Positions 17,088-31,993 of a DNA stretch of 64,000 nt are shown piece by piece. Position numbers and translations under genes: made by a program. The stretch spans positions 4,201-68,200 of the forward strand of contig NZ_DATCQT010000090.1 in assembly GCF_036569345.1 (NCBI RefSeq), in the 5' to 3' direction. The stretch's first letter is position 1, and each line of letters opens with the position of its first letter. This stretch comes from Clostridium sp. (lineage in GTDB: Bacteria > Bacillota > Clostridia > Clostridiales > Clostridiaceae). The notes beneath the pieces were generated by a model. The model was not told the origin of the DNA and did not search any database. It was given only the letters and a program-made list of their open reading frames with translations.

Positions 17088-17468
17088 ATGAAAAGAAGAA
17101 AGATTTTTTATGTTACATTATTTATAGCAGCTTTTTCTACTATATCTGGAGTGATAACTTATGCAGCTGGAGTGGCTATGCCCGGCGGTACTGTAGTTAT
17201 TGGTACTAAAGCCTATGATATTACCTATGCTAATGATTCTAAAAATGAATCTGAAATTACCGCAGCGCTGCTTGCTGGTGGTGAAATTTATGTTAAAGAT
17301 TTTGGATCAAGCTGGGTTGACAATAGTACCTCGGCAATTATAAATGCTAACATACTTCCTAGTGTAACTTATAAAAGTGCAACTGGTATTATAAGCACAT
17401 ATTCAGCTGGAGATGCAGGTAATAGTACACCCGTAACTGATGAATTTAAAATACTTAGCATAGAGTAA
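17088..17468 (+). CDS. Exported protein consisting almost only of the shared surface N-terminal module
   Basis: Signal peptide then GTVVIGTKAYDITYAND..AGGEIYVKDF..WVDN..LPSVTYK. Confidence 0.8.
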   Translation: MKRRKIFYVTLFIAAFSTISGVITYAAGVAMPGGTVVIGTKAYDITYANDSKNESEITAALLAGGEIYVKDFGSSWVDNSTSAIINANILPSVTYKSATGIISTYSAGDAGNSTPVTDEFKILSIE

Positions 17469-17510
17469 TTTATTATAAAATGATTAGCTTTTTATAAATT
17501 ATAAAGGTAA

Positions 17511-17553
17511 ATAGAAGGGGTGAGATAGTCTAAGCTATCTCACCCCTTCTATT
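17511..17553. terminator. Bidirectional terminator
   Basis: aatagaaggggtgagatag-tctaag-ctatctcaccccttctatt between convergent genes. Confidence 0.85.
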
Positions 17554-17563
17554 TTTAAAAGTC

Positions 17564-17959
17564 TTAATTTTTCTTAACTGCTTCTCCCTTTTGTAAACTC
17601 AAATCTACTGAATATGCCACTTTATCATCTGCTTTTAGAAGTTTAACCGCTACCTTATCCTTTTCTTTTCTAGCTGGATAAGCTGTAGTAGGTTTACCTA
17701 TTACTGTTTTTGGTGAAACAGCCTTTCCTTCATAAAATATCTGGTATTTTACAGCACCCTTATACTGTTTTTTTCCTTCTACTGAAAGAGTTACATTTAC
17801 TACAGAACTAAAAGCAGCTTTTCTTACTGTAGCAGTAATTGGTGCACTAGCCTGAGCTTTATTGGGTTTATTATTTATATAAAACACACTAGCAATTGCT
17901 ATGACAATTATTATAATAGCCAATATACCAATCACTTTTTTATTAATATTTTTTTTCAT
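17564..17959 (-). CDS. Membrane-anchored/exported hypothetical protein with ~80-aa beta-rich domain
   Basis: Basic N-terminus plus hydrophobic helix; YQIFYEG..TTAYP..VAVKLL domain. Confidence 0.75.
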   Translation of the reverse strand: MKKNINKKVIGILAIIIIVIAIASVFYINNKPNKAQASAPITATVRKAAFSSVVNVTLSVEGKKQYKGAVKYQIFYEGKAVSPKTVIGKPTTAYPARKEKDKVAVKLLKADDKVAYSVDLSLQKGEAVKKN

Positions 17960-17999
17960 ATGTTAATTCACTCCTATTATCGATTATTTATTTACTTTA

Positions 18000-18590
18000 C
18001 TATTTAGAGTTTAAAACTGTACTTAATTTTTTAATGACTTTCTTATTAACATCCATTAGATTTATTGTAACTCCTGTTCCAGCTTCTTGCGATGGAAAAA
18101 TATTTGTTTGGATTTTTGTAATGGCTTCCATCTTAGATATTGCTTTATTTCCCAGGAAAAACTGATAATATTTATAACTACTATCAAATTTACTATTATC
18201 AATAGAAATGTCTGCTATGGATCCAAAATTTGCAGCTTTAACAAATACCGTAATACCTACTTTAGCACTTTCGACTTTTGCTTGTTCTGCTGCCTTTACT
18301 TGCTCAGCAGTAACTTTATCACCAGTACTTGTTTTATCATTCACTGATCCAGTTGTCCCTGTTGTACCAGCCGTAGAAGTTGTACCTTTTGCGCCAGTTG
18401 CATCAGTTGTTGAATTTCCTTTTGCTGTTGTTCCACCGTTCTTATCTAATCCTTCGGTCTTAATAGCGTTTTTAGTTTTATTATTTGCGTTTATCTTATC
18501 ATTCTGATTTTTGTTAATAAGTAGAAATCCAGCTATTATTACCACAATTACTACTAATGAAATTGCTATTTTTTTATAGTTTTTTTTCAT
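18000..18590 (-). CDS. Membrane-anchored hypothetical protein with Thr/Gly linker and the same beta-rich domain
   Basis: TM helix, TAGTTGTTG linker, YYQFFLG..TNIFP..VTINLM. Confidence 0.75.
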   Translation of the reverse strand: MKKNYKKIAISLVVIVVIIAGFLLINKNQNDKINANNKTKNAIKTEGLDKNGGTTAKGNSTTDATGAKGTTSTAGTTGTTGSVNDKTSTGDKVTAEQVKAAEQAKVESAKVGITVFVKAANFGSIADISIDNSKFDSSYKYYQFFLGNKAISKMEAITKIQTNIFPSQEAGTGVTINLMDVNKKVIKKLSTVLNSK

Positions 18591-18604
18591 TTGTTTTCCT
18601 CCTT

Positions 18605-19453
18605 TTACTCTGATTTAAAATATACTTTGCAGTTGCTTATATCAAAATCTTTATTAACAATATAATCTTCTGTTATAGTAAAATCATAAATTTTAGCTTT
18701 ATGAGGATTTACATTTACATTTTCAATATTAAAGATGCCTTTAGCCACTACTTCCCCTGAATCATCCTTAACTATAATTGGTAATCTTTCTAATTTTACG
18801 ACTTTGTCACAACCATTACGGATTAGAAAAACTATAGAAATAGAATTATTTAAACACTTTAATACTTTAAATACCTCAATATTCACATCTCCAGCTTTTA
18901 TTAAAGGTAATTCATTTAAAAATTTTGTAAAAGTACCTTCTAATTCATGGTGAACATCACCAGGAAATCCCTCAAATTGAACCTGTACAGTATTTATAGC
19001 ACTAATAGATTTTTCAAATTTTATTTTCCAATCATCCTTTGAAATTGAATCAACAAATAAGCTAGTCTTATCAAAATAAACTTTATATGGTCTTGCAGAA
19101 AAAGGAGGTAATATACCAAAATCGTTCATGTCCATAACTTGTTTTGCAAGTATATCTCCATTATTGTTTACAATTACTAGTGGCACTTTGTCAAAATTAA
19201 TCTGTTTTGACAATCCATTTCTTAAATAAACACTAACCTCAATTTTATTTTCTATTTCAAAGGTGTATATACCATTGATAGATACTTGTCCTTCTTCCAT
19301 AGGTGGTAGTGTATCTAATTCTTCTCTTAAAAATTCCTTTTGATAATCTGACATAACCCCTTTATCATAATCATTAAGATACAGCTTTATATTTAGCGCC
19401 TTTTTTTCTTTTGTCGTTACATTATTGCTTGCTATTAAATTATTACTTGTCAT
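18605..19453 (-). CDS. SLAP-domain (duplicated) S-layer assembly-associated protein
   Basis: Two repeats VYLRNG..VPLVIVNNNGDILAK and FLIRNG..LPIIVKDDSGEVVAKG typical of SLAP domains. Confidence 0.75.
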   Translation of the reverse strand: MTSNNLIASNNVTTKEKKALNIKLYLNDYDKGVMSDYQKEFLREELDTLPPMEEGQVSINGIYTFEIENKIEVSVYLRNGLSKQINFDKVPLVIVNNNGDILAKQVMDMNDFGILPPFSARPYKVYFDKTSLFVDSISKDDWKIKFEKSISAINTVQVQFEGFPGDVHHELEGTFTKFLNELPLIKAGDVNIEVFKVLKCLNNSISIVFLIRNGCDKVVKLERLPIIVKDDSGEVVAKGIFNIENVNVNPHKAKIYDFTITEDYIVNKDFDISNCKVYFKSE

Positions 19454-19568
19454 ATTTAATTCCCCCTAATAGGTCCATATATCTCATTATTTATTATAAT
19501 TACTACTAATTATACCATATAATTCTTAAACAAATAATTAACTTTAATTTTATTCGTCCACAGTAAAT

Positions 19569-19594
19569 TACGCTAAACCTAACAAATAGTTGCA
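19569..19594 (-). promoter_or_regulatory. ECF-type promoter TGCAAC-N16-CGTA
   Basis: Minus strand tgcaac tatttgttaggtttag cgta upstream of the SLAP gene. Confidence 0.6.
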
Positions 19595-19663
19595 CTTCAT
19601 TTTTGAGATAATAAAATAATTTATTATATTTTTATTTGGTAATCATTTCTCATTCAAAAAATT

Positions 19664-19704
19664 AAGTAGCCTGAAACAGTTCTTTACTCCGTTTCAGGCT
19701 GCTT
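19664..19704 (-). terminator. Terminator hairpin downstream of the S-layer-like gene
   Basis: aagtagcctgaaacag...ccgtttcaggctgctt; near-identical to 22321-22352. Confidence 0.7.
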
Positions 19705-19713
19705 GGCCTTATT

Positions 19714-22050
19714 TTATTTATTCCCAATAGTTACATTTGCAGTTGCTTTAATAATAGAATCAACTACTGATTCCACAACTATAGAATCAGTCCCTGTTAT
19801 TACTCCAGTGTATGTTACATACATTTTTTTATCAACATCATCATAATTAACTACTGCAATAACCTTAGTTCCATTTACTATTTTAACCATAGTGGGATCA
19901 GTTATAACTTTTCCATATTGGTCAAGTACAACTATTTCTTTTTTTACAGCAACTCCCACAATTAATGAAACATTTACGTCTACAATTGTTATAGATTTTA
20001 TTGCACTTTTAGCTCTTACAATTACGTTTAATGTATCTTTAATAACATCAACCTCATCTATTGCTTTATTACCAACTGTTACAATTAATGTTGTGTTTTC
20101 CACAAAACTATTAACTGAAGTTTTGCTAGGATCAAATTTCACAGCTAATCCCTGTGCCCCAGCAAAGTCAGTTTCAATAATAGATCCTTGTGCATCATGT
20201 TTATAATAAATAAGGCTTGCAAAACCAGAAGCTTCCTTTATTCCATTTTTAGTGGAAATTCTCCAATTCGTAATATCAGGAATTATTTCATCCCCCTTAT
20301 TGTCTACTACACTTAGGACCCTATAAACAGGAGCCGTAGCATTAGCTATAATACTATTATCTCCAATGTTATTTCCAAGTTCAATCGACTTAAGTGTTGT
20401 AACCTCTGCCGATATTTCTAAATTATAGGTTGCAACCGTACCATTCACGTTTATATTTATTATATAATTCCCAGCAGCCTTAGCCTCAAACCTTAATGAC
20501 TTAACAACTCCAGTGGTTGCTACTTGCCCATCTTTATCTAATTTTTCAACTATTACATTATTAGATGTTATCCCATCATCACTATAAACTAAAGCAGTGA
20601 CATTATCACCTGCAACGTCTATAACTTCATTATTAGCATTTCTTATTACTAAATTTGCGTTTTGTTTTGTATTAACTTTAAGCTTTGGTAATGTTATAGA
20701 ATCAATTGTGGTTGTAACTGGATTTATGGTAGTTACTACATCAAATTTAGCTGCTTTTATAGTATCCTCTGCATCAAATGAAGTTCCTATATATGGAGTG
20801 ACTTCATAATTTCCAGCTTTTAATGTTCTAGCACTAATTACTATATTGTTTTTATAATAATCAGTACCACCTCTAAGTGATGCTGTAACTACTATATCAC
20901 TGGCCGAAATATCACTAGTTTTAGGAGTTACATTAAATTTAATCATATCAGGTGTTAATAAAGCACCATTATTTTGAGTTATTTTATTATATTTAACATC
21001 TTCATTATTAAACTTAGTAATTGGATTTTCGGAAGTTAACGTGAGCCCTGTAAGTTTTGTTGCTCCTACCTCAACTGTATAAGTAACTTTGACACCATTA
21101 AGAATGTTATAAGCACTTATAGTTACTGTACCAGCTTTTATAGCTTTAAAAGTAACGGTATTCACAGTTGTATCTAATGTTAATTTGCTACTATTAAGGT
21201 CAGAAGTACTATCCAGTAAGTTGCCACCCACCTCAACTATCCATCTTAATTTATTAATTGATAAATCTGTAGGGTTGTTATATTGGTCGCGTACATCGAC
21301 TCTTAAAATTACTGCCGCATCCCCAACTAAGACAGTATCTGCGGATGTTGTCACCGATAAAATTGACTTAGGGGATATTGGCTCATCCTTCCCTACTGTA
21401 TAATTATTGCTTATTGAAGATACTAATTCAGCAGTTGAAGATACCGCATCTTTATCAAATTTTTCTAACATTATAACTACAGCGTCATTTTCAGTTAATT
21501 TTTTATTTATTGTGATTTTTGCCATATTTCTATCTGTATCCAATCTTATTTCTGCATCACTTAAAGGCACTCCGTTTACTGTTGCCGTTACTTTATATGA
21601 AGAATCTGTTACGATATTGAAATCTTTTCCATATTGATCTACAGCTGTAAAATAAGCAAAATTAGATATATTTGTAATTTCATTTGTTACACTAGTAAAT
21701 GTTTTTGGATAGGCTGTTTCCTTAACAACTTGGTTTGTATCTGCAGCATCAAATCCAATTGTTTCATTACCATCTTTGTAAACAACGGCTGGTATAAGGC
21801 TTGTAGCTATAGGAAGTCCTGTAACATTATCTATCCAATCTCCATTGAAATTTTTAACATAAACTGGTCCACCTTCAACTATTGCATTAGTGATTTCACC
21901 CATATTTAATGGATCATTAGAATATCCTAAATCAAAAGCTTTATCCCCTATTACCATTGTTCCATTCTTCATTGCTGCAATCGTCGTAATAGATGTTAAG
22001 GCTGCCATCATTAAAGCAGCAAGGACTGAACTTGCAATTTTCTTGTTCAT
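19714..22050 (-). CDS. S-layer-like/Ig-fold surface protein with shared N-terminal module
   Basis: Signal peptide, shared module, then ~670 aa of Thr/Val-rich beta repeats (AVDQYG, VRDQYN, VLDQYG). Confidence 0.75.
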   Translation of the reverse strand: MNKKIASSVLAALMMAALTSITTIAAMKNGTMVIGDKAFDLGYSNDPLNMGEITNAIVEGGPVYVKNFNGDWIDNVTGLPIATSLIPAVVYKDGNETIGFDAADTNQVVKETAYPKTFTSVTNEITNISNFAYFTAVDQYGKDFNIVTDSSYKVTATVNGVPLSDAEIRLDTDRNMAKITINKKLTENDAVVIMLEKFDKDAVSSTAELVSSISNNYTVGKDEPISPKSILSVTTSADTVLVGDAAVILRVDVRDQYNNPTDLSINKLRWIVEVGGNLLDSTSDLNSSKLTLDTTVNTVTFKAIKAGTVTISAYNILNGVKVTYTVEVGATKLTGLTLTSENPITKFNNEDVKYNKITQNNGALLTPDMIKFNVTPKTSDISASDIVVTASLRGGTDYYKNNIVISARTLKAGNYEVTPYIGTSFDAEDTIKAAKFDVVTTINPVTTTIDSITLPKLKVNTKQNANLVIRNANNEVIDVAGDNVTALVYSDDGITSNNVIVEKLDKDGQVATTGVVKSLRFEAKAAGNYIININVNGTVATYNLEISAEVTTLKSIELGNNIGDNSIIANATAPVYRVLSVVDNKGDEIIPDITNWRISTKNGIKEASGFASLIYYKHDAQGSIIETDFAGAQGLAVKFDPSKTSVNSFVENTTLIVTVGNKAIDEVDVIKDTLNVIVRAKSAIKSITIVDVNVSLIVGVAVKKEIVVLDQYGKVITDPTMVKIVNGTKVIAVVNYDDVDKKMYVTYTGVITGTDSIVVESVVDSIIKATANVTIGNK

Positions 22051-22182
22051 ATGTTTTTACCTCCATTTTAAGTTTGATTTTTCATATTTAATATTAACAC
22101 CCTTAATTAAACATTAATTAAGGATTAATTTCTTTCAACTACTATAATTCCCTGGATATGTTTACATTTTTTACACTTATAT

Positions 22183-22209
22183 AACGTTTATTCTGACAAT
22201 ATAGTTGCA
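22183..22209 (-). promoter_or_regulatory. ECF-type promoter TGCAAC-N17-CGTT
   Basis: Minus strand tgcaac tatattgtcagaataaa cgttatat. Confidence 0.65.
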
Positions 22210-22320
22210 CTTTTATTAAGGTTTTTATATTTATATTTTTCGTGGGTGTCTTTGTGGGACTGTTATTGACTAAATATCCTTGAGACATAGTAAATTATTA
22301 CAACACCAAAAAATGAAAAA

Positions 22321-22352
22321 AGCCTGAAACAAAGCTTGACTCCGTTTCAGGC
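22321..22352 (-). terminator. Terminator hairpin downstream of acyltransferase
   Basis: agcctgaaac-aaagcttgactcc-gtttcaggc, flanked on the + strand by an A-run. Confidence 0.65.
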
Positions 22353-22361
22353 AAATTAATC

Positions 22362-23420
22362 TTAATGTTTTATAAATGTTACCTTTTTCCCCAACTTCAC
22401 AAATGGTGTTTCTAAATATTTATATGATATTAAAGAAATTATTATTGTAGAAATAATTGCTAATATGAATTGGAAAATTGGATTAGTCAAGCTAAAATAT
22501 TTATGAAGAACTATTCCAACATACACATTCACTACTGGATGTAACAAATATATAGAATAAGTAGCAATTCCTAAAATTTCTAATTGATATCTTATAATTT
22601 TGGGAACTGAAAAATCCATTTTATAAAATGATATAACTATACAAATTGATAAAATTGAAAAAATAGCTCTACCCATTCCAGTTATTAATACAATTTGATT
22701 CCCTTTAAATGGTAGTGTAATAAAACAGATCAAACAAACTATTAAAAGTACAATATTCATTTTTTTAGTTACTTTTATTTGTTTAAGATTATAAAAAATC
22801 GCTATCCCCGTAATATATAAATATAAATTATTAAAAGGATTAATATAAATTTGCCATTGATATGATAAATTCATTGTGGGTATTAACAAAATCTGAGAAT
22901 AATGAAAACCAATTAAAACTGTAAATAGAAAAAATAAATTCCCAAATAATATTTTTTTGTTGTACAAAAATATAATTAAAGGTGTAAATACATAATAAAG
23001 CATTTCGGATCCAATAGACCAAGTTCCCACAGCAATATAATCACTTGGTTTAATGAGTCCAACAGTTGTAGTAAGATTAAGAATTATATTAATAATAGAA
23101 TTACCCTGTTGGTTAAACGGTACTGGGTGAATAATAATTAATAGTGTAACCACCCACAATAAGGGCCAAATTCTAAATATTCGTCTTATAAAAAAGTATA
23201 AGGATGTTCTGATATCTTTTATATACCTACTATACACAATTGCCATACTCAATCCAGAAAGAATGAAAAATATGGATACTCCATAGATTCCTAACCTTCC
23301 TAAAACTGATCCAGCATTTAATTTGAAAAATGTTAATCCCACTAAATGGTACAACATAAGACTTAAGGCCATTAATCCCCTTAGCCAATCTAAAGATTCA
23401 ATGCGATTTTTATTTTTCAT
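22362..23420 (-). CDS. Acyltransferase family 3 (OafA-like) membrane protein
   Basis: RIESLDWLRGL, GVSIFFILSG, RRIFRIWPL, TWSIGSEM, YSIYLLH, YKYLETP. Confidence 0.9.
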   Translation of the reverse strand: MKNKNRIESLDWLRGLMALSLMLYHLVGLTFFKLNAGSVLGRLGIYGVSIFFILSGLSMAIVYSRYIKDIRTSLYFFIRRIFRIWPLLWVVTLLIIIHPVPFNQQGNSIINIILNLTTTVGLIKPSDYIAVGTWSIGSEMLYYVFTPLIIFLYNKKILFGNLFFLFTVLIGFHYSQILLIPTMNLSYQWQIYINPFNNLYLYITGIAIFYNLKQIKVTKKMNIVLLIVCLICFITLPFKGNQIVLITGMGRAIFSILSICIVISFYKMDFSVPKIIRYQLEILGIATYSIYLLHPVVNVYVGIVLHKYFSLTNPIFQFILAIISTIIISLISYKYLETPFVKLGKKVTFIKH

Positions 23421-23780
23421 TTCTAACCCTCTTATAATTTTATTTTTATGATTATTTGCCCAATTATTACTTTAGTTAATAAAAAAATTTAAAAAGTAAC
23501 AATTTTAATCCATGAAGTTGACATTAATAGTCTATCACTTTTCTCATCAATTATCATATTTTTTTAATAAAATTTAAACAAAATTAAAATTTAATCTATA
23601 TAGTTACAATATATTTACACTAAATCCATCCTATTTTAGCGTTTTATGACGTTTCCGTTTAAATTTTAGCATATTATAATACTTTGAAGTGAACACAAAA
23701 ATAGAACCGTCAACAAGATGACGCTAAAATAGGCATGAGATCTTTTTCTCATGCCTGTTTACTTTTCTTAAACTTCTATT

Positions 23781-25304
23781 TTATTGTAATAAAATACTAT
23801 CAGGGAATTTTTCATTAATCCAATTTTTAATCTCATTTGGCATATCACTAGCCCCTCGTTCAGTAGTATAATATTGAACTATAGCATTACCCATAGAATC
23901 AATATGTGAGAAAGCTAATCTAATATTTCCATTTTCGTCTAATTGTATGATACCTTCCATTATTGTGAATAAGCCAGGCTTTCCTCCAACTATTGTATAA
24001 GTTTTATTGATGTCATTATATTCTATATCTGTGGATATTGAATACATACAATCTTTAAATAGATCATAGTCAATTCCTAGTAATTCTTTAATCTTAGTAT
24101 CCACAACTGGTTCAGTAAATAAGTTGTAACTTTCATCTAATCTATTTTTGTAATTTGCAACAATATCGCCCACTGGATCCACATTTTCTATAACAAAATC
24201 TTTAAATATAATATTTCTATAAAAAGCATTAACTGCAGTATAATCATTAATTTGATTGCCCTTTAAATATAACTCTGTCAAGTTAATAAGTCCTCTTAAA
24301 GGTTCTATGTTAGTAATTTGATTGTACTCTAAATACAACCTATTCAAGTTAGTAAGTACACTTAAAGAGTCTAGATTACTGACTTGATTGAACCTTAAAG
24401 AGAACGTATTTAAAGTTATTAATCCTTTTAAAGGTTCAATGTTGCTTATTTTATTGTAATCTAAAAATAACTGAGTTAAGTTAGTAATCCCTCTTAACGC
24501 ATCTATGTTACTGATTTGATTGTTATCAGAAAGTAACGTAGTTAATTTAGTCATTCCTCTTAGAGAATCCATATCGCTAATTTGATTGTTATCTAAATCC
24601 AACTCAGTCAAGTTAGTTAATCCTCTTAAAGGTTCTATATTGTTGATTTGGTTGCTTTGTATATACAGCTCATTCAAGTTAACTAATCCTTTTAATGGTT
24701 CTATGTTGCTTACTCGGTTGTAACATAACCACAAATATTTCAAGTTAGTTAATCCTCTTAAAGGCTCTATGTTGCTAACTTGATCGTAAGATAAAACCAA
24801 TTTAGTTAAGCTGGTCAATTTTTCGATCCCTGAAAGATTTGTTATATTTTTCGATGGAATATTCAGTTCTGTTATTGTATCCACATCGCCTTTTAAAATA
24901 TCTCCAGTAGGTTTATTAATTTCATTTCTAACTTCCTTTTCTAAATTCTGATCTGGAAATGTAATAATTGTACTACTATCCACAACATCTTTATCTTGCG
25001 CATCATAATTAATTTCTTTATCAGCATTGGTATAAATTACAGCTGGTATAACATTTGCGTCAACAGGCTCACCACTATTATTGTCAATCCAAATTCCATC
25101 GAAACCTTTAACATAAACTTCTCCACCTGCAATTATTGCATCGGCAATTTTCTGAAGATTAACTGGGTCATTAGCATATTCTAAGTCAAAAGCCTTGTTT
25201 CCTATTACAACAGAACCACTCGTCATTGATGCAAACGCTGTGAAATATGTTGATCCTGCAATCATTAAAGTAGCTAGTGCAGTACTTATAATTTTCTTGT
25301 TCAT
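23781..25304 (-). CDS. Internalin-like LRR surface protein with shared N-terminal module
   Basis: Shared module, cap ITFPDQNLEKEVR, ~9 22-aa LRRs (LRGLTNLTELDLDNNQISD), unrelated C-terminal domain. Confidence 0.88.
   Translation of the reverse strand: MNKKIISTALATLMIAGSTYFTAFASMTSGSVVIGNKAFDLEYANDPVNLQKIADAIIAGGEVYVKGFDGIWIDNNSGEPVDANVIPAVIYTNADKEINYDAQDKDVVDSSTIITFPDQNLEKEVRNEINKPTGDILKGDVDTITELNIPSKNITNLSGIEKLTSLTKLVLSYDQVSNIEPLRGLTNLKYLWLCYNRVSNIEPLKGLVNLNELYIQSNQINNIEPLRGLTNLTELDLDNNQISDMDSLRGMTKLTTLLSDNNQISNIDALRGITNLTQLFLDYNKISNIEPLKGLITLNTFSLRFNQVSNLDSLSVLTNLNRLYLEYNQITNIEPLRGLINLTELYLKGNQINDYTAVNAFYRNIIFKDFVIENVDPVGDIVANYKNRLDESYNLFTEPVVDTKIKELLGIDYDLFKDCMYSISTDIEYNDINKTYTIVGGKPGLFTIMEGIIQLDENGNIRLAFSHIDSMGNAIVQYYTTERGASDMPNEIKNWINEKFPDSILLQ
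24230..24860 (-). repeat. 66-bp tandem coding repeats (LRR units)
   Basis: Recurring agttagttaatcctcttaaaggttctat-like units at 66-bp period inside the LRR gene. Confidence 0.8.
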
Positions 25305-25349
25305 TTATTTTTACCCCCATTTTATTGAGTTTAATTTCCCCGCGAAATA

Positions 25350-26915
25350 TTAGTTAAAAACAGGAATATCAAAAGTTAATGTAACGTCTGGAAATAAGTC
25401 GAAACAACTTTTAATGATTCTTATTTGACTATTTGCCCAATTAACATCTGTTGCATATTGATGATAAATATTTAAAGGGTTCCATCTCATTTTATAAAGC
25501 GTATTTTGGTAATTTCCTATATACCCTTTCGAAATCCATGCTGCCCCTCCATAAATTGCTAAATCTATACTTGTCCACCCATTTGTGAATGCAGTGCTTG
25601 TACCAAATGCATCCGGATCACTGTCAATTGCTCCAATACCAAATAAATTATACACAGGAATCCCATTTGTATAGTTTCCACTAGAATCTTTTGTACCACC
25701 ATTTGCTAAAAGTGAAGTGCCATATCCCGTTTCCAAAATCGCATGAGCCGCCAAATATATAGGATTAACATTATTTGCTTTTGCTGCATCAATAAACACT
25801 TGACCCTTACCCTTTAATGTACCATTAGATCCGAATACTGAATCCAATTGAGCCGCAGTTACACAATCAACATAATTCAATACTATAAACTCATAAATTT
25901 TTGCTGAATCATTTTCTAAATTTAAAGGATCTACATTTTTTACAAGTTGATCTTTAATACTATTATAAACTGCTAATGAATTTACCCAAGATCCATTAGG
26001 ATTCTTCATATCCGTAAAGTATCCTGGTTGTCCATTTTTTATTAAAGCATAACACCATTGACCATTAATAGCTGCTGCAGGTGTATTTAACATTTCTTGG
26101 CTAATAAAATCACTTAATAAAACATCATATTTTGTTAAAGTAAATGTATTATCTCCCTTAGATACTAATGCATCCAATACATTAATATTAGCTATTCTAA
26201 CATTAAACTCTTCTTTTTTAGTAGTATCTTTAACAACTCCTACAATTTCAGTTGCTGTTGTTACATCAACATTCATTCTAGAAGTTTCTGCTACTTTAAC
26301 TGCTGTTTCTGCCGCATCAATATTTGCTAAATCAGGATTTACTCCAACTACAACATTAACAGTTATATCTGGTTTTGTTCCGGTTACACCCTCTGGGAGT
26401 GCATAATCACCATTGAATATATACGATGATGTCTTTGTTTCATCATAATTAGAGCTTGTCCAAGTAACGTCAACCTCTTTAGTTGTATTATTACTTAATT
26501 TAAGTGTTACTTTTGCTGGCAAATTGGCATTAGCAACTGTTGTTCCGTAAACTACATTGATAGTATTAAAAGGATTAACTGATATTATATTCACTTGATC
26601 TTTATCTGCAGCATCAAAATTAATTTGTTTATCCACACTCTTATACACTACAGCTGGTATAACACTAGCTTCTACGACTTCACCTGTATTATTGTTAATC
26701 CAAATTCCATCAAACCCTTTGACATAAACTTCTCCAGCTGATAGTAATGCATTAGAAATTTGATAAAGATTAGCTGGGTCATTTGCATAAGCTAAATCAA
26801 AAGCTTTACCACCTATAGCAACAGTACCACTAGGCATTGCAGCAAACGCAGTGAAAGATGTAAATCCTGCTATCATAATGGCAGCAAGAACAGAACTTGT
26901 AATTTTCTTGTACAT
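25350..26915 (-). CDS. Surface glucosaminidase (GH73) with shared N-terminal module and Ig-like domain
   Basis: AAKANNVNPIYLAAHAILETGYG, YNLFGIGAID, TLYKMRWNP..HQYATDVNWA. Confidence 0.88.
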   Translation of the reverse strand: MYKKITSSVLAAIMIAGFTSFTAFAAMPSGTVAIGGKAFDLAYANDPANLYQISNALLSAGEVYVKGFDGIWINNNTGEVVEASVIPAVVYKSVDKQINFDAADKDQVNIISVNPFNTINVVYGTTVANANLPAKVTLKLSNNTTKEVDVTWTSSNYDETKTSSYIFNGDYALPEGVTGTKPDITVNVVVGVNPDLANIDAAETAVKVAETSRMNVDVTTATEIVGVVKDTTKKEEFNVRIANINVLDALVSKGDNTFTLTKYDVLLSDFISQEMLNTPAAAINGQWCYALIKNGQPGYFTDMKNPNGSWVNSLAVYNSIKDQLVKNVDPLNLENDSAKIYEFIVLNYVDCVTAAQLDSVFGSNGTLKGKGQVFIDAAKANNVNPIYLAAHAILETGYGTSLLANGGTKDSSGNYTNGIPVYNLFGIGAIDSDPDAFGTSTAFTNGWTSIDLAIYGGAAWISKGYIGNYQNTLYKMRWNPLNIYHQYATDVNWANSQIRIIKSCFDLFPDVTLTFDIPVFN

Positions 26916-26991
26916 ACACTTATTCCTCCCTATGGCAGTTATATTTTACATGTTTTCTATAATTATAGTTTTTCAAGTTTTACACCAATAT

Positions 26992-27018
26992 AACGCTTAC
27001 TAGGACAATATAGTTGCA
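26992..27018 (-). promoter_or_regulatory. ECF-type promoter TGCAAC-N17-CGTT
   Basis: Minus strand tgcaac tatattgtcctagtaag cgttatat. Confidence 0.65.
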
Positions 27019-27257
27019 TTTTTTATACTATTAATATGTACTATTTATTTAGCGATACTTCTGTTCCATCAACTAAATTATAGAAATTCACTTTGTAATT
27101 GATAGAGCATGGATTTCTACTAATATCCTCAATTCCAGTAATAGAAAATTGAGAAGAACAGCTACACGCTATCCTTCTCAATTTTTTAATGAATATCACC
27201 AAATTTAGGCCTTTAAAAGTACTAAATACAATAGTATCAAACTTATCTATACTATAT

Positions 27258-28100
27258 TTATAAAACTATTGGAGCAACTAAAATCACATCAATTATTTTA
27301 ACTACTGTTCCAGCTGTATTTAATAATTTAATTGTAACTGTATCTCCAACAACTTTTCCTGGGTATATTATTGTATCTGTTCCCAAATTAGCAATATTTG
27401 ATAAAACTCTTATTCCATCAAATATTTGGTATTGTGTAACGCCCTCTTGAGTTGACGTAACGCTTACTTTTGCTCCAATAGTAGCTGCTTGTACCGTTGC
27501 AATGACTAGTGTTTGTATTGGATTTTTAACTATAACAGTACAAGTTGAAGTCTTACTTCCATCCACTGTTGTTACCGTTATAGTTGCTGTCCCAGCACCT
27601 ACTGCTATTACCTTTCCGGTATTATCTACTGTTACTACCTTATTATCTGAAGATGCCCATGTTACCTTTTTATTTGCTGCATCTGTTGGGTTTATTATAG
27701 CTATTAAATTATCTGTTTTACCTACTATAAGAGAATCTGTGGTTTTATCTAAACTCACTGATTTAACTGGTGTGGCAATTTTCTCTTGATCTTCAGCACC
27801 ATAATTAATATCCTCATCATCACTCTTATAAACTACAGCTGGTATAACCTTTTCTTCTACAGCTTTATCTGTATTATTGTCAACCCAAATTCCATCAAAA
27901 CCTTTAATATAAACTTCCCCACCAGCCATAATTGCACTAGTTATTTTTTCGATATTAACTGGATCATTAGCATACTGTAAATCAAAAGCTACGTTACCTA
28001 TAACAAGACTACCCCTCGGCATTGCAGCAAAAGCTGTGAAAGATGTCACTCCTGCTATCATTAATGCAGCAATAGCTGAGCTTATAATTTTCTTATTCAT
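27258..28100 (-). CDS. Surface protein: shared N-terminal module, Big_2 Ig domain, C-terminal beta domain
   Basis: VKSVSLDKT..PTDAANKKVTWASSD..VDNTGKVIAVGAGTATITVTTVDG Big_2 pattern. Confidence 0.87.
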   Translation of the reverse strand: MNKKIISSAIAALMIAGVTSFTAFAAMPRGSLVIGNVAFDLQYANDPVNIEKITSAIMAGGEVYIKGFDGIWVDNNTDKAVEEKVIPAVVYKSDDEDINYGAEDQEKIATPVKSVSLDKTTDSLIVGKTDNLIAIINPTDAANKKVTWASSDNKVVTVDNTGKVIAVGAGTATITVTTVDGSKTSTCTVIVKNPIQTLVIATVQAATIGAKVSVTSTQEGVTQYQIFDGIRVLSNIANLGTDTIIYPGKVVGDTVTIKLLNTAGTVVKIIDVILVAPIVL

Positions 28101-28333
28101 ATATTTATACCCCCTTTTATTTTTAAATCTTAATTTTAATATAAAGCCTATACATTTTTAATATAATTTTTAAATTTTACTATCTAATCCTTATATTTAT
28201 ATATATCGTCTACATTTTTAAATAGTTTATAGTCAACATCATTTATTTTAACGACAAAGAAACTACTGAAATATATATTTCAGTAGTTCCATAGTAATGT
28301 GTAACTTACATATGTTTGTTGCAATTTTTAATC

Positions 28334-29329
28334 TTACTTTGGAGCTACAACTGTGCTCTGATCCAAAGTCACAGCAGTCTGTGCAAGTAGTCTACCATTT
28401 ATTGATGCATTAGTCCCTAGATCGATATTTGTCTTGCTCATTATATTTCCCTCAAAGTGCGAATTAGTTCCAATCGAAACTGTTCCCGCTGCCTGCCAGA
28501 ATATGTTCTTGGCTTGTGCTCCACCCGTTAGGATAATTTTAGCTCCGCTAGCTTGGGTAATTCCTTTAGCTATTTGGAAAATAAAAATATCGTTTGGTCC
28601 ACCACTTAGAGTTACATCAGAATTTATTAAAACATCTGTACCCCACTTGTAAACACCAGCCCTAAGTGTTTTGCCACTAATATCTCCAGTATACAGTTCT
28701 GTATAACCCGCAGCTCTTCCAGCAGCATCTGTGTATGCTGTTTCCATGTTGCTTACAGCTGTAGTTAGGTCACTTGGAGTTGTAGAACCATAATCCGAAG
28801 CATATACCATCCCTGTAATTTGGCTGGAAACTGAAAATTCATTAGTGGCATCAGCTGTCAAAGAAAATCCAGTAATGGCAGTCGAACCAATTGGGCTAAC
28901 TCCTATATTCCCAGTAATAATACTATTTGGTACGGAAGATATTCCCGATTTCGATAAAATAGCATAATTACCAGCAGTCCCAAGATTTACTGGAGCTACG
29001 TTAACGTAATCTTTATCTGCAACATCAAAGTTAGTTATTACTCCAGTAGCATTTTTATAAACTACAGCTGGTATAATACTTTCGTCTACAACTTCATTCG
29101 TATTATTGTTAATCCAAACTCCATCAAATCCTTTAACATAAACTTCAACATCTGAAGCTATCGCACTACTGATTTCATCAACATTTTTAGGGTCATTAGC
29201 ATACCCTAGGTCAAAAGCTTGGCCACCTATTACTACTGTACCATTATGCATTGCAGCCACCGCCGTCAAAGATGTTGACCCTACTATCATTAAAGCAGCA
29301 AGAACTGTACTTGTAATTTTCTTATTCAT
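28334..29329 (-). CDS. Ice-binding protein (DUF3494/IBP-1 fold) with shared N-terminal module
   Basis: VNLGTAGNYAILSKSGIS, ITGNIGVSP, METAYTDAAGR, TLRAGVYKW, FIFQI, GGAQAKNIFWQ, GRLLAQTAVTLD. Confidence 0.92.
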   Translation of the reverse strand: MNKKITSTVLAALMIVGSTSLTAVAAMHNGTVVIGGQAFDLGYANDPKNVDEISSAIASDVEVYVKGFDGVWINNNTNEVVDESIIPAVVYKNATGVITNFDVADKDYVNVAPVNLGTAGNYAILSKSGISSVPNSIITGNIGVSPIGSTAITGFSLTADATNEFSVSSQITGMVYASDYGSTTPSDLTTAVSNMETAYTDAAGRAAGYTELYTGDISGKTLRAGVYKWGTDVLINSDVTLSGGPNDIFIFQIAKGITQASGAKIILTGGAQAKNIFWQAAGTVSIGTNSHFEGNIMSKTNIDLGTNASINGRLLAQTAVTLDQSTVVAPK

Positions 29330-29402
29330 ACATTTATTTCTCCTTTTGTGGATTAATTTTACCTATTTACTATTAATAGTTTTTTACGTTTTATACTTAT
29401 AT

Positions 29403-29429
29403 AACGATTACCACAACAATAAAGTTGCA
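29403..29429 (-). promoter_or_regulatory. ECF-type promoter TGCAAC-N17-CGTT
   Basis: Minus strand tgcaac tttattgttgtggtaat cgttatat upstream of the ice-binding gene. Confidence 0.65.
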
Positions 29430-29908: not shown

Positions 29909-31993
29909 GTGAAAAAACTAACGACACTATTAATAACAACAGCATTAACATCAGCAGTAATTTTAGGTACAAATACTTTGATAACTCAAAGTAAGTCCAA
30001 AGCGCCAATCAAAAGCAATGTTTCTATTGCAAGACAAAAAACATTGTTATCCGAAAACACACCAGTTCCTGAGAAAGAGCTACTAGCTAAAGATAATGTT
30101 GATGTTTTGGCTATAAAAAAAACTACGACTCTTGCTTTAGATAATGCAAAACAAGCAGAAGCTATCAAATCGGCACAAATTGCTGCAACTGCTGGAAAAC
30201 AAGAAGAAATTGATAGAATAGCGGCTGAGAGACCAGCTACGTCTAAGCAGCCTGCAATAGCAAAAAATAATGTAACCCCACAGCAGAAAACTGCGAGTGT
30301 ACAAAGAGCTAATCTAGCTACAGCAAACACAAGTAGTCTAACTCAAGATGAAGAAGATGAAGCTGCTGCAGCAGCAGCTGAAGCGGCAGCAGCCGAAGCA
30401 GATAGGCTAGCTCAGATAGCAGCAGCTAACCATGCTATACTAATGCGTAACCAAACAGTAACTACAACAAGATTATCATCTTACTTAACACCTGCAGCTA
30501 ATGTTATTAGTGTACTAAACAGAGCTGTAGCACTCCATAGTGGAGATCCAGCAAATAATTGTGTTTATTTTTCAAGTGAAGCATTGAGAAGAATAGGTGT
30601 ATCAGTTCCACTAGCAACATGCAATACAGGACAATATTTATCTTATTTTCGTGCACATGCATGGATAACCTCGTCCGCAATTAAAGAACTTATACCAGGA
30701 AATATTTGTTTTACTACTAACGGCTGGAATGGCTATCCTACTCATACCTTTGTATTTATGGGATGGGTTACTGACGGAGACTATACTTGGGCATATGTAG
30801 CAGACAACCAAGGTACCTCTGTTCATGTACGTAACATGGGTGCAACCACTGAAACAGATGCTTTTGCTTACTATGTGCATACACCTACCACTCCTCAAGC
30901 ATTTGCTGCATTATCATCGGGATATAACAGTATTTATGTTGGTTGGAACACCGTAGCTGGAGTGAGTGGATATGAAGTTTCCAGAGCAACATCAAGTAAT
31001 GGAAGTTACACTTTAATAGCAACAACTTCAGCAACAAGGTTTAACAATACAGGACTTACAACCAATAATGCTTATTATTACAAAGTTAGGTCATATAAAG
31101 TAGTTGGTTCGGTTAAACAGTACAGTCCCATTTCAAATACAGTAAGTTCAAAACCAATACCATCTGCGCCATCAACAATAAGAATAGCTTCATCTTCATA
31201 TAACAGTATCAATACTATTTGGCTCGCTATAGCTGGAGCTAATGGATATGAAGTTTATAGTGCAACATCAAGTGACGGATTATACACTTTAATGTCTAAT
31301 ACTACAGCCCTAAGTTATAAGGATACTGGACTTACAACAAATAGTACTTATTACTATAAATTTAGATCATATAGGATGGTTGGCAGTGTAAAAATCTTCA
31401 GTGTTTTCTCAAATCCTATAAGTTCAACACCAATACCATCACCTCCAAAATCAGTTAACGCAACATCATCTTCACCTAGCAGTATAACTACTAGTTGGAA
31501 TACTGTAACTGGAGCAGCTGGATATGAAGTTTACGGTGCGCTATCAAGTAACGACACATACAATCTTTTACTTGATACTACCGGAAATAGTTATAACAAT
31601 ACTGGTCTTACAACATATAACAATTATTTCTATGTAGTTAGAGCATATACTATGGTTGATGATATAAAAGTGTACAGCAATTGGTCAATCGTAGTTAGTG
31701 CACATCCAGTACCAGCAGGCCCAGTAAATCTTGTAGCTACTAGAAAAAGCTCTAGTATTATTAGACTTACTTGGAGCCCCATAACAGGAGCGAGTGGTTA
31801 TGAAGTATATAAAGCTACCTCAAGTACTGGAACATATAGCTTATTATCAAGCATGTCATCTCCATATCAATATTATACAAATTATAATTTAACAACAGGA
31901 AAAACTTATTACTATAAAGTAAGATCGTTCCTAACTGTTGGGAATACAAGAATATATGGTAATTGGAGTACAGTAGTACATGCTACAACATAG
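29909..31993 (+). CDS. Secreted protein: Ala-rich stalk, papain-like (NlpC/P60/CHAP-like) domain, four fibronectin type III repeats
   Basis: NNCVYFSSEAL...PTHTFVF Cys/His pair; 4x W..V.GA.GYEVY.A.S..G.Y...Y.YKVRSY. Confidence 0.75.
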   Translation: MKKLTTLLITTALTSAVILGTNTLITQSKSKAPIKSNVSIARQKTLLSENTPVPEKELLAKDNVDVLAIKKTTTLALDNAKQAEAIKSAQIAATAGKQEEIDRIAAERPATSKQPAIAKNNVTPQQKTASVQRANLATANTSSLTQDEEDEAAAAAAEAAAAEADRLAQIAAANHAILMRNQTVTTTRLSSYLTPAANVISVLNRAVALHSGDPANNCVYFSSEALRRIGVSVPLATCNTGQYLSYFRAHAWITSSAIKELIPGNICFTTNGWNGYPTHTFVFMGWVTDGDYTWAYVADNQGTSVHVRNMGATTETDAFAYYVHTPTTPQAFAALSSGYNSIYVGWNTVAGVSGYEVSRATSSNGSYTLIATTSATRFNNTGLTTNNAYYYKVRSYKVVGSVKQYSPISNTVSSKPIPSAPSTIRIASSSYNSINTIWLAIAGANGYEVYSATSSDGLYTLMSNTTALSYKDTGLTTNSTYYYKFRSYRMVGSVKIFSVFSNPISSTPIPSPPKSVNATSSSPSSITTSWNTVTGAAGYEVYGALSSNDTYNLLLDTTGNSYNNTGLTTYNNYFYVVRAYTMVDDIKVYSNWSIVVSAHPVPAGPVNLVATRKSSSIIRLTWSPITGASGYEVYKATSSTGTYSLLSSMSSPYQYYTNYNLTTGKTYYYKVRSFLTVGNTRIYGNWSTVVHATT

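Follow-up and report, generated by a model that had tools for sequence, protein, structure and literature searches.

In a stretch of 64,000 nucleotides from Clostridium sp. (NCBI RefSeq assembly GCF_036569345.1, contig NZ_DATCQT010000090.1, positions 4,201 to 68,200), here referred to as the window, six open reading frames (ORFs) encode exported proteins that share one small N-terminal module and continue into unrelated passenger domains. The question raised by this locus is what the module does for its passengers, i.e., whether it holds them at the cell envelope, docks them onto another protein, joins them into a lattice or guides their export. The data presented below suggest that the module is most likely, by analogy, the counterpart of the SLH and CWB2 domains in a few Clostridium species, most of them psychrophiles. 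That it serves in envelope retention or anchoring of some kind appears probable, because its genes are linked to those for SlaP and for polysaccharide synthesis, because an SLH domain takes its place in a homolog of one of the passengers, and because the proteins offer no SLH, CWB2 or LPxTG alternative. The terminal position of the module after export signals (as with SLH and CWB2), a passenger repertoire resembling those of the Bsl and Cwp families, and a dedicated promoter-like motif concentrated in two surface loci argue in the same direction. A first-pass annotation of the window had proposed an anchoring, plug-in display platform, and these observations, together with the lack of a match to any characterized domain, support that proposal in part.

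The module and its predicted fold

The six module-bearing ORFs, with positions counted from the first nucleotide of the window, are:

17088..17468, forward strand: stand-alone module protein, 126 amino acids (signal peptide, module at 17178-17417, short conserved tail ending ILSIE)
19714..22050, reverse strand: candidate S-layer protein, 778 amino acids (signal peptide, module at 21733-21972, long β-repeat passenger)
23781..25304, reverse strand: module and internalin-like leucine-rich repeat (LRR) protein, 507 amino acids (module at 24987-25226; LRR_4/LRR_8)
25350..26915, reverse strand: module, Big_4 and GH73 N-acetylglucosaminidase, 521 amino acids (module at 26598-26837; Glucosaminidase PF01832)
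27258..28100, reverse strand: module, Big_2 and a C-terminal second β-domain, 280 amino acids (module at 27783-28022; β-domain at ~27258-27515)
28334..29329, reverse strand: module and ice-binding (DUF3494-type) protein, 331 amino acids (module at 29012-29251; PF11999)

In all six proteins the module directly follows the AxA signal-peptide cleavage site, and the signal peptides are themselves alike (MNKKI.S..LAALMIAG.TSFTAFA, cleaved before AM). The first-pass annotation had placed these ORFs and their common consensus correctly, behind the signal peptide, and had given the module ~90 residues; its length is corrected here to ~80. The passengers that were listed, i.e., none, LRR, GH73, Big_2 and ice-binding, are all present, with the amendments that the GH73 protein also carries Big_4 and the Big_2 protein also the second β-domain. 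The module consensus reads MP.GTVVIG.KAFDL.YANDP.N..EI..AI.AGGEVYVKGFDGIWIDNNTGE.V.ASVIPAVVYK....INYDAADK. An alignment of the module alone spans 80 columns, of which 22 are invariant, with a mean column identity of 69%, and the module profile recovers each of its copies with E = 1e-37 to 1e-42, which excludes a chance resemblance among them. Among the conserved residues are Y17, N19, K40, W46, N49, Y65 and D78. It had also been suggested that DNA similarity among the 5' ends might allow passengers to be shuffled; these regions are 52-78% identical and have no exact run longer than 22 nt in common, values that do not support such shuffling for the present sequences and on which recent gene conversion or recombination was rejected. 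The diversity of the passengers shows that they were shuffled over evolutionary time.

No Pfam-A or NCBIfam model matched the module in the six window proteins or in 102 family members, and precomputed Pfam labels, which include newer models such as PF27872, are blank for module-only proteins. A search of PDB sequences with the module profile gave a best match of only E = 0.57, and a homolog search limited to the module region returned the query itself as its sole result. Module-bearing homologs of the 778-residue protein have Pfam labels that are blank or Big_2-only, with one exception labeled PF26918. The latter label, found on the 280-residue protein, was considered as a name for the module and rejected, because module-only proteins are blank and most module homologs are blank or Big_2-only.

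An AlphaFold2 prediction from an alignment of six sequences had a predicted local distance difference test score (pLDDT) of 66 and was superseded by one from 76 sequences, which reached a pLDDT of 96.5 and a predicted template-modeling score (pTM) of 0.85. These values argue that the module is a genuine domain in its own right, which is predicted to consist of a β-hairpin, a pair of helices and another four strands. Foldseek searches with this model found no neighbor in the PDB (best E = 1.2, TM score <= 0.28) or in BFVD (best E = 0.5); judged against these two databases, the fold is provisionally new. According to the model, the module is thus an autonomously folding α/β domain that is unclassified in Pfam-A, NCBIfam, PDB sequences and the folds of PDB and BFVD. 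Neither the profile searches nor the structure prediction linked it to any characterized anchoring domain, in keeping with the initial description of the domain as uncharacterized.

Distribution of the module family

A HMMER search over 1.84 billion representative sequences (E <= 1e-3) defined a module family of 296 representative clusters. Among the best 150 members, which range from 58 to 1976 amino acids in length, 138 have the module directly behind the signal peptide, 11 have it at the C-terminus and one has it internally; most of the 11 proteins with a C-terminal module have a recognizable N-terminal signal peptide of their own, and the others are apparently truncated. Passengers in the family comprise Big_4, Big_2, Big_5, LRR, CopC, RCC1, trypsin, subtilase, PPC, SH3_3, DUF5050 and ice-binding domains. 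The named homologs all belong to the C. estertheticum, C. frigoris and C. tagluense group and are annotated as "hypothetical" or "Ig-like domain-containing". Orthologs of the stand-alone protein in C. estertheticum, C. frigoris and Clostridium sp. CS001 are 124-133 amino acids long, "hypothetical" and without a Pfam match.

The module is found in 11 of 150 genomes of the bacterial family (5 of 59 genera) and in 4/399 genomes (4/217 genera) in a class-wide survey. Its range is restricted to a handful of Clostridiaceae genera, with the C. estertheticum group as its main holder. Where it has expanded, its copies are clustered and number 4-18 per genome. The only same-genus genome without a module (G031) also lacks the second β-domain, SLAP and CWB2, which looks like a loss of the whole surface cassette.

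The genome of the present, cold-adapted Clostridium (4.7 Mb, ~30% GC) has ten copies, not only the six noticed at first: six are located in the window and four on another contig, C70. One of the latter belongs to a 1431-residue protein (C70 63064-67359) with its own signal peptide, Big_2 and two 5'-nucleotidase/metallophosphoesterase units, in which the module is found at the extreme C-terminus. This copy is truncated to profile positions 1-53, i.e., it lacks the IPAVVYK strand. A short form of the module (profile positions ~1-61) is also seen in several family members.

Association with SlaP and the question of export

Directly downstream of the gene for the 778-residue protein is a gene for a homolog of SlaP:

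18605..19453, reverse strand: cytoplasmic SlaP homolog, 282 amino acids, two SLAP domains

This protein matches TIGR04398 (SLAP_DUP) in two copies with 208 bits (cut-off 28.5) and TIGR04399 (acc_Sec_SLAP) with 165 bits, i.e., under the equivalog cut-off of 250, and it is 71% identical to a C. estertheticum ortholog labeled PF27872 (Sec_acc_SLAP). Because of the score below this cut-off and the presence of a single SecA (see below), it is described here as a SLAP-domain protein and not as a proven equivalog. SLAP is found in 68 of 148 genomes of the family, and is enriched among module carriers (10/11, vs 58/137 of the other genomes; Fisher p = 0.002). In nine genomes from five genera a module gene is located 1-13 kb from a SLAP gene, and in a tenth genome the distance is 37 kb; throughout the genus, the stand-alone module gene is kept beside that for SlaP. 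Relatives rich in CWB2 have CWB2 genes next to SLAP instead.

The sap/eag genes of B. anthracis are preceded by slaP, slaQ and secA2, which aid secretion of the S-layer proteins (PMC9277125). The analogy to that system is incomplete because only one SecA (C202) is present in the assembly; SecA2 was not found, and a SecA2-dependent export route was rejected on this ground. In clostridia SlaP may act without SecA2, because SLAP genes, present in the 68 Clostridiaceae genomes noted above, are usually located beside CWB2 or module genes, and because the genome considered here has a single SecA.

The linkage to SlaP also raises the alternative of export targeting, which the first-pass annotation had named as well. 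The module would then be a secretion-competence element recognized by SlaP or an accessory route, or an N-terminal pro-domain, and would have no role after export. Such a function would be consistent with the usual position of the module directly after the signal peptide, with the unusual similarity of the signal peptides themselves and with the adjacent SlaP gene. It is disfavored, and in our assessment highly improbable, because the module is C-terminal in 11 of the best 150 members, most of them behind their own signal peptide (including the 1431-residue 5'-nucleotidase), and because the 58 module-free genomes that harbor SLAP, often beside CWB2, indicate that SlaP is independent of the module. 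Furthermore, the assembly lacks SecA2, and a stably folded domain of 80 residues, as predicted here, is unlike Sec targeting signals.

Alternative anchors and SLH at the position of the module

SLH (PF00395) had no match in the six window proteins (E <= 0.1), in the 102 family members or anywhere in the genome, and CWB2 (PF04122) had none in the six proteins and one weak match in the genome. An LPxTG-like sorting motif or hydrophobic tail was not found in the last 60 residues of the ten module proteins, nor was a C-terminal transmembrane segment found in any of them. The first impression that SLH, CWB2 and LPxTG are lacking was thus confirmed for all ten proteins.

An indirect indication of the role of the module is obtained from the 778-residue protein. 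Its passenger has no Pfam match, but residues ~130-720 are 33% identical to P0192 (E 4e-75), a protein with a canonical triple SLH N-terminus at the position held by the module in the 778-residue protein. The same region is 34% identical to P0191, a β-repeat protein from Lysinibacillus capsici (E 2e-81), and the identity to both proteins spans ~650 residues. Hence, the passenger that was initially called S-layer-like is homologous to SLH-bearing S-layer-like proteins. A preprint documents, as an evolutionary pattern, that homologous S-layer proteins may differ by an exchange of the type of anchoring domain (10.1101/2025.04.02.646754). The 778-residue protein also has a paralog in this genome, C70_71297 (1340 amino acids). 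In P0191 and in a further protein, P0193, the N-terminal ~100 residues are unclassified, being neither SLH nor module; from their sequences, these regions may be further types of anchor. The N-terminal region of P0193 is faintly module-like.

The presence of one common domain in all module proteins, the putative lattice protein included, would also be expected if modules bound each other or the S-layer lattice, i.e., if they served in co-assembly or oligomerization while something else attached the array to the wall; the conserved stand-alone module protein could then serve as a spacer or cap. Such an array would be left without a wall anchor, given that there is no SLH or CWB2 expansion in the genome and no LPxTG in the members, and the domain at the equivalent position in P0192 is SLH, a wall-binding and not a lattice domain. 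We consider this possibility distinctly improbable.

Linkage to a polysaccharide locus and a common promoter-like element

The module genes on C70 lead directly into a locus for Wzz, CpsB, a CpsD-like kinase, CapD and Bac_transf, where the assignment of CapD rests partly on reading of the sequence by eye. These genes are followed by apparent sugar-nucleotide genes, also judged by eye. The genome's single CpsB gene is located 1-35 kb from a module gene in six of eight genomes, representing three genera.

A promoter-like motif of the extracytoplasmic function (ECF) type is found at three positions in the window:

22181..22209, reverse strand: TGCAAC-N17-CGTTAT, 130 nt upstream of the gene for the 778-residue protein
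26990..27018, reverse strand: TGCAAC-N17-CGTTAT, 74 nt upstream of the GH73 gene
29401..29429, reverse strand: TGCAAC-N17-CGTTAT, 71 nt upstream of the ice-binding gene

Allowing spacers of 15-18 nt (TGCAAC-N15-18-CGTTAT), the motif occurs 10 times in the genome (~0.7 expected), and seven of these 10 sites are within the two surface loci. Those on contig C70 are at 68709, 68824, 68937 and 76059; three tandem copies ~115 bp apart are located upstream of C70_69380, a gene for Big_2 and the second β-domain. With C70_242 added to the three genes listed above, the motif is found 71-130 nt upstream of four module genes. One of them encodes a complete ice-binding domain (PF11999, E 1.9e-71), and if the module does anchor, its 331-residue product would be an ice-binding protein fixed to the cells of a strict anaerobe.

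The leader of the gene for the 778-residue protein also contains an AT-rich inverted repeat (CCTTAATTAA-TGTT-TAATTAAGG; window ~22100-22140). The same repeat is kept in the long 5' untranslated regions of three module genes, i.e., this gene, C70_242 and C70_1340, and may be an mRNA-stabilizing or regulatory hairpin.

A β-domain inherited together with the module

The C-termini of three proteins in the window, i.e., the module protein of 280 residues and the two listed below, have in common a β-domain of ~85 residues with the pattern ..A.FG..V.VT....YQIF.G...I......FP...AGD.VTVKLL.

18000..18590, reverse strand: 196-residue protein with an N-terminal transmembrane helix, a ~100-residue T/G/A/K-rich linker and the C-terminal second β-domain
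17564..17959, reverse strand: 131-residue protein with an N-terminal transmembrane helix and the C-terminal second β-domain

The genes for these two membrane-anchored proteins are kept between SlaP and the stand-alone module gene. On contig C70, C70_69380 encodes a secreted protein with two tandem copies of the domain (C70 70643-71176), and in four genera the gene that immediately precedes a large S-layer-like gene with the module specifies a protein of ~440-600 residues with two β-domains. Of 148 family genomes, exactly nine have the β-domain; all nine carry the module, and they include all 8 module-rich genomes.

This strict co-inheritance fits a protein partner as well as a polysaccharide ligand, and it leads to an alternative in which the module docks, in the manner of cohesin and dockerin, onto the β-domain of membrane-anchored and secreted proteins, so that the tether would be a protein scaffold. 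Further features consistent with docking are the conserved order of a protein with two β-domains followed by a large module protein, the retention beside SlaP of transmembrane-anchored β-domains, one of them on a flexible linker, and the acidic character of the module, which is no less suited to a protein interface than to a site for an anionic polymer. However, four distant or weak module carriers (G080, G116, G192 and G244) have no β-domain at E <= 0.05, which shows that the module does not strictly need it. Moreover, co-occurrence may merely reflect membership of one S-layer cassette, and the secreted proteins with two β-domains would need an anchor of their own. We therefore regard docking as rather unlikely. 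The same holds for its extension, a doubtful one in our view, that module and β-domain form a new cognate "plug and socket" pair and that protein-based S-layer anchoring, with a new fold, has replaced the glycan-based SLH and CWB2 systems in psychrophilic clostridia. The β-domain proteins, both membrane-tethered and secreted, would be the sockets in that case, and all proteins with a module the plugs.

A proposed model of surface anchoring

Returning to the anchoring function, the pattern found here is that of an S-layer class of proteins: one terminal domain is present on a large lattice-type protein and on diverse accessory proteins with Sec signal peptides, and its genes are coupled to SlaP and to wall-glycan synthesis genes. 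Passengers of the Bsl and Cwp families include GH73, proteases, LRR, Ig-like domains and 5'-nucleotidase, like those of the module family, and SLH and CWB2 are likewise found at either protein terminus.

In the mechanism that we propose, the module proteins would be transcribed from the shared ECF-type promoter and exported by Sec, aided by the adjacent SlaP homolog. After cleavage at AxA by signal peptidase, the proteins would begin with the module, which would bind a wall-associated ligand non-covalently and keep the passenger on the cell surface. The proteins displayed in this way would comprise an S-layer lattice protein, the GH73 glucosaminidase, LRR and Ig-like adhesin-type domains, the ice-binding domain and the 5'-nucleotidase. 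The preferred ligand would be a secondary cell-wall polysaccharide (SCWP) from the linked Wzz/CpsB/CpsD/CapD/sugar-transferase locus. We infer the binding by the module, the identity of its ligand and the existence of an S-layer in these species from genes and their arrangement. That the module is a new, non-covalent envelope-anchoring domain of S-layer and accessory proteins, acting through the steps outlined above, is a conclusion that we hold with modest confidence. The assignment of a wall glycopolymer as its ligand is tentative, and is preferred over a β-domain protein as the partner.

A number of observations weigh against this model. The module is acidic (pI 4.0-4.3), whereas basic grooves are typical for binding of anionic polymers, and it is present in a single copy per protein, whereas SLH and CWB2 act as triplets. 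Surface-protein genes near capsular polysaccharide loci are common, so that the linkage on C70 is not specific. A search of the literature found no description of an S-layer in the C. estertheticum complex, and both the lack of SecA2 and the co-inheritance of the β-domain, discussed above, belong to the same list. In addition, one of the 102 family members (P0150) has both a truncated module and CWB2, and in the out-of-family carriers G192 and G244 the module coexists with SLH-type proteins encoded nearby. Genomes rich in CWB2 (6-40 strong repeats) account for none of the 8 module-rich genomes and for ~45 of 149 in the bacterial family (p = 0.05); this counts in favor of the model as a further sign that no alternative anchor is in use, but the mutual exclusivity is marginal and confounded by phylogeny. 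Considered as stand-alone proof, it was set aside as suggestive and not significant alone.

Other genes of the cluster

Within the cluster is also found a gene for a membrane enzyme:

22362..23420, reverse strand: Acyl_transf_3 membrane acyltransferase (PF01757, E 1.9e-23)

From its sequence, the product is possibly a glycan O-acyltransferase, and the place of its gene inside the cluster belongs with the polysaccharide linkage described above. Divergent from the module cluster is the gene for a secreted protein of 694 residues (window 29909-31993), in which four fn3-like repeats accompany a region rich in Ala and Glu; the GC content is locally raised (0.37).

The module/SlaP clusters of relatives contain, in addition, a protein of ~740 residues with a single weak SLH-like motif, which has no counterpart in this genome:

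L011 14546-16762: ~740-residue weak-SLH protein (C. estertheticum)
G115 C1:4001327: ~740-residue weak-SLH protein
G079 C1:187607: ~740-residue weak-SLH protein

The C. estertheticum protein, a neighbor of 738 residues, was considered as a module protein and ruled out, being a weak-SLH protein without a counterpart in the window.

Significance

If the model is correct, the module would be a third, unrelated clostridial anchor that is single-copy, acidic and of a predicted fold without PDB neighbors, and a single bacterial family would offer a natural example in which one anchoring system was replaced wholesale by another. The module would also account for the way in which an anaerobe in the cold could keep an ice-binding protein, a peptidoglycan hydrolase and adhesin-type domains on its surface, and could provide a compact surface-display tag of 80 residues for non-pathogenic anaerobes. 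These implications are bounded by the narrow lineage to which the module is confined and by a function that is deduced. The β-domain, a SlaP homolog without SecA2 and a dedicated ECF-type promoter would together make up a complete cassette that is amenable to genetic dissection.

Comparison with known systems

Attachment of S-layers in Gram-positive bacteria relies mainly on SLH and CWB2, as well as on Lactobacillus-type SLP attachment domains. The SLH system of Bacillus and Paenibacillus, i.e., the S-layer and Bsl proteins, resembles the one described here in that a terminal module is found on the S-layer protein and on many unrelated passengers, and in that a homolog of the 778-residue passenger bears SLH at the position of the module. 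SLH proteins are exported by Sec with the help of SlaP and are encoded in an S-layer gene cluster (PMC9277125; PMC6081394). The two differ in that SLH is a triplet and the module a single acidic unit, with no similarity in sequence or predicted fold. Furthermore, the ligand of SLH is a pyruvylated SCWP, and the pI of the module makes an anionic ligand less obvious for it.

The CWB2 (Cwp) proteins of C. difficile and C. tetani (PMC4973711 for anchoring of CWB2 through PSII) are likewise clustered, multi-copy clostridial surface paralogs encoded beside a wall-polysaccharide locus. Their anchor may be at either terminus, their passengers are hydrolases, proteases and adhesin-type domains, and the place of the module genes beside SLAP is taken by CWB2 genes in sister genera. 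In contrast to the module, to which it is unrelated in sequence, CWB2 consists of three tandem repeats, and there is little overlap between the two among genomes (P0150 has both).

Cohesin-dockerin systems are similar in that a small module is carried by many unrelated passengers and that anchored proteins display a second domain, strictly inherited along with the first. They differ in that there is no sequence similarity and no Pfam match to dockerin or cohesin, and in that some module carriers are without the second domain.

The 282-residue ORF is comparable to B. anthracis SlaP (TIGR04399/PF27872) in its two SLAP domains, its length of ~280 residues, its lack of a signal peptide and its location beside a (putative) S-layer gene, and differs in its score of 165 vs 250 bits and in the lack of a SecA2 paralog. 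From this comparison, it becomes apparent that the system is of a known kind, i.e., modular non-covalent display around an S-layer, on a domain that is absent from the searched libraries.

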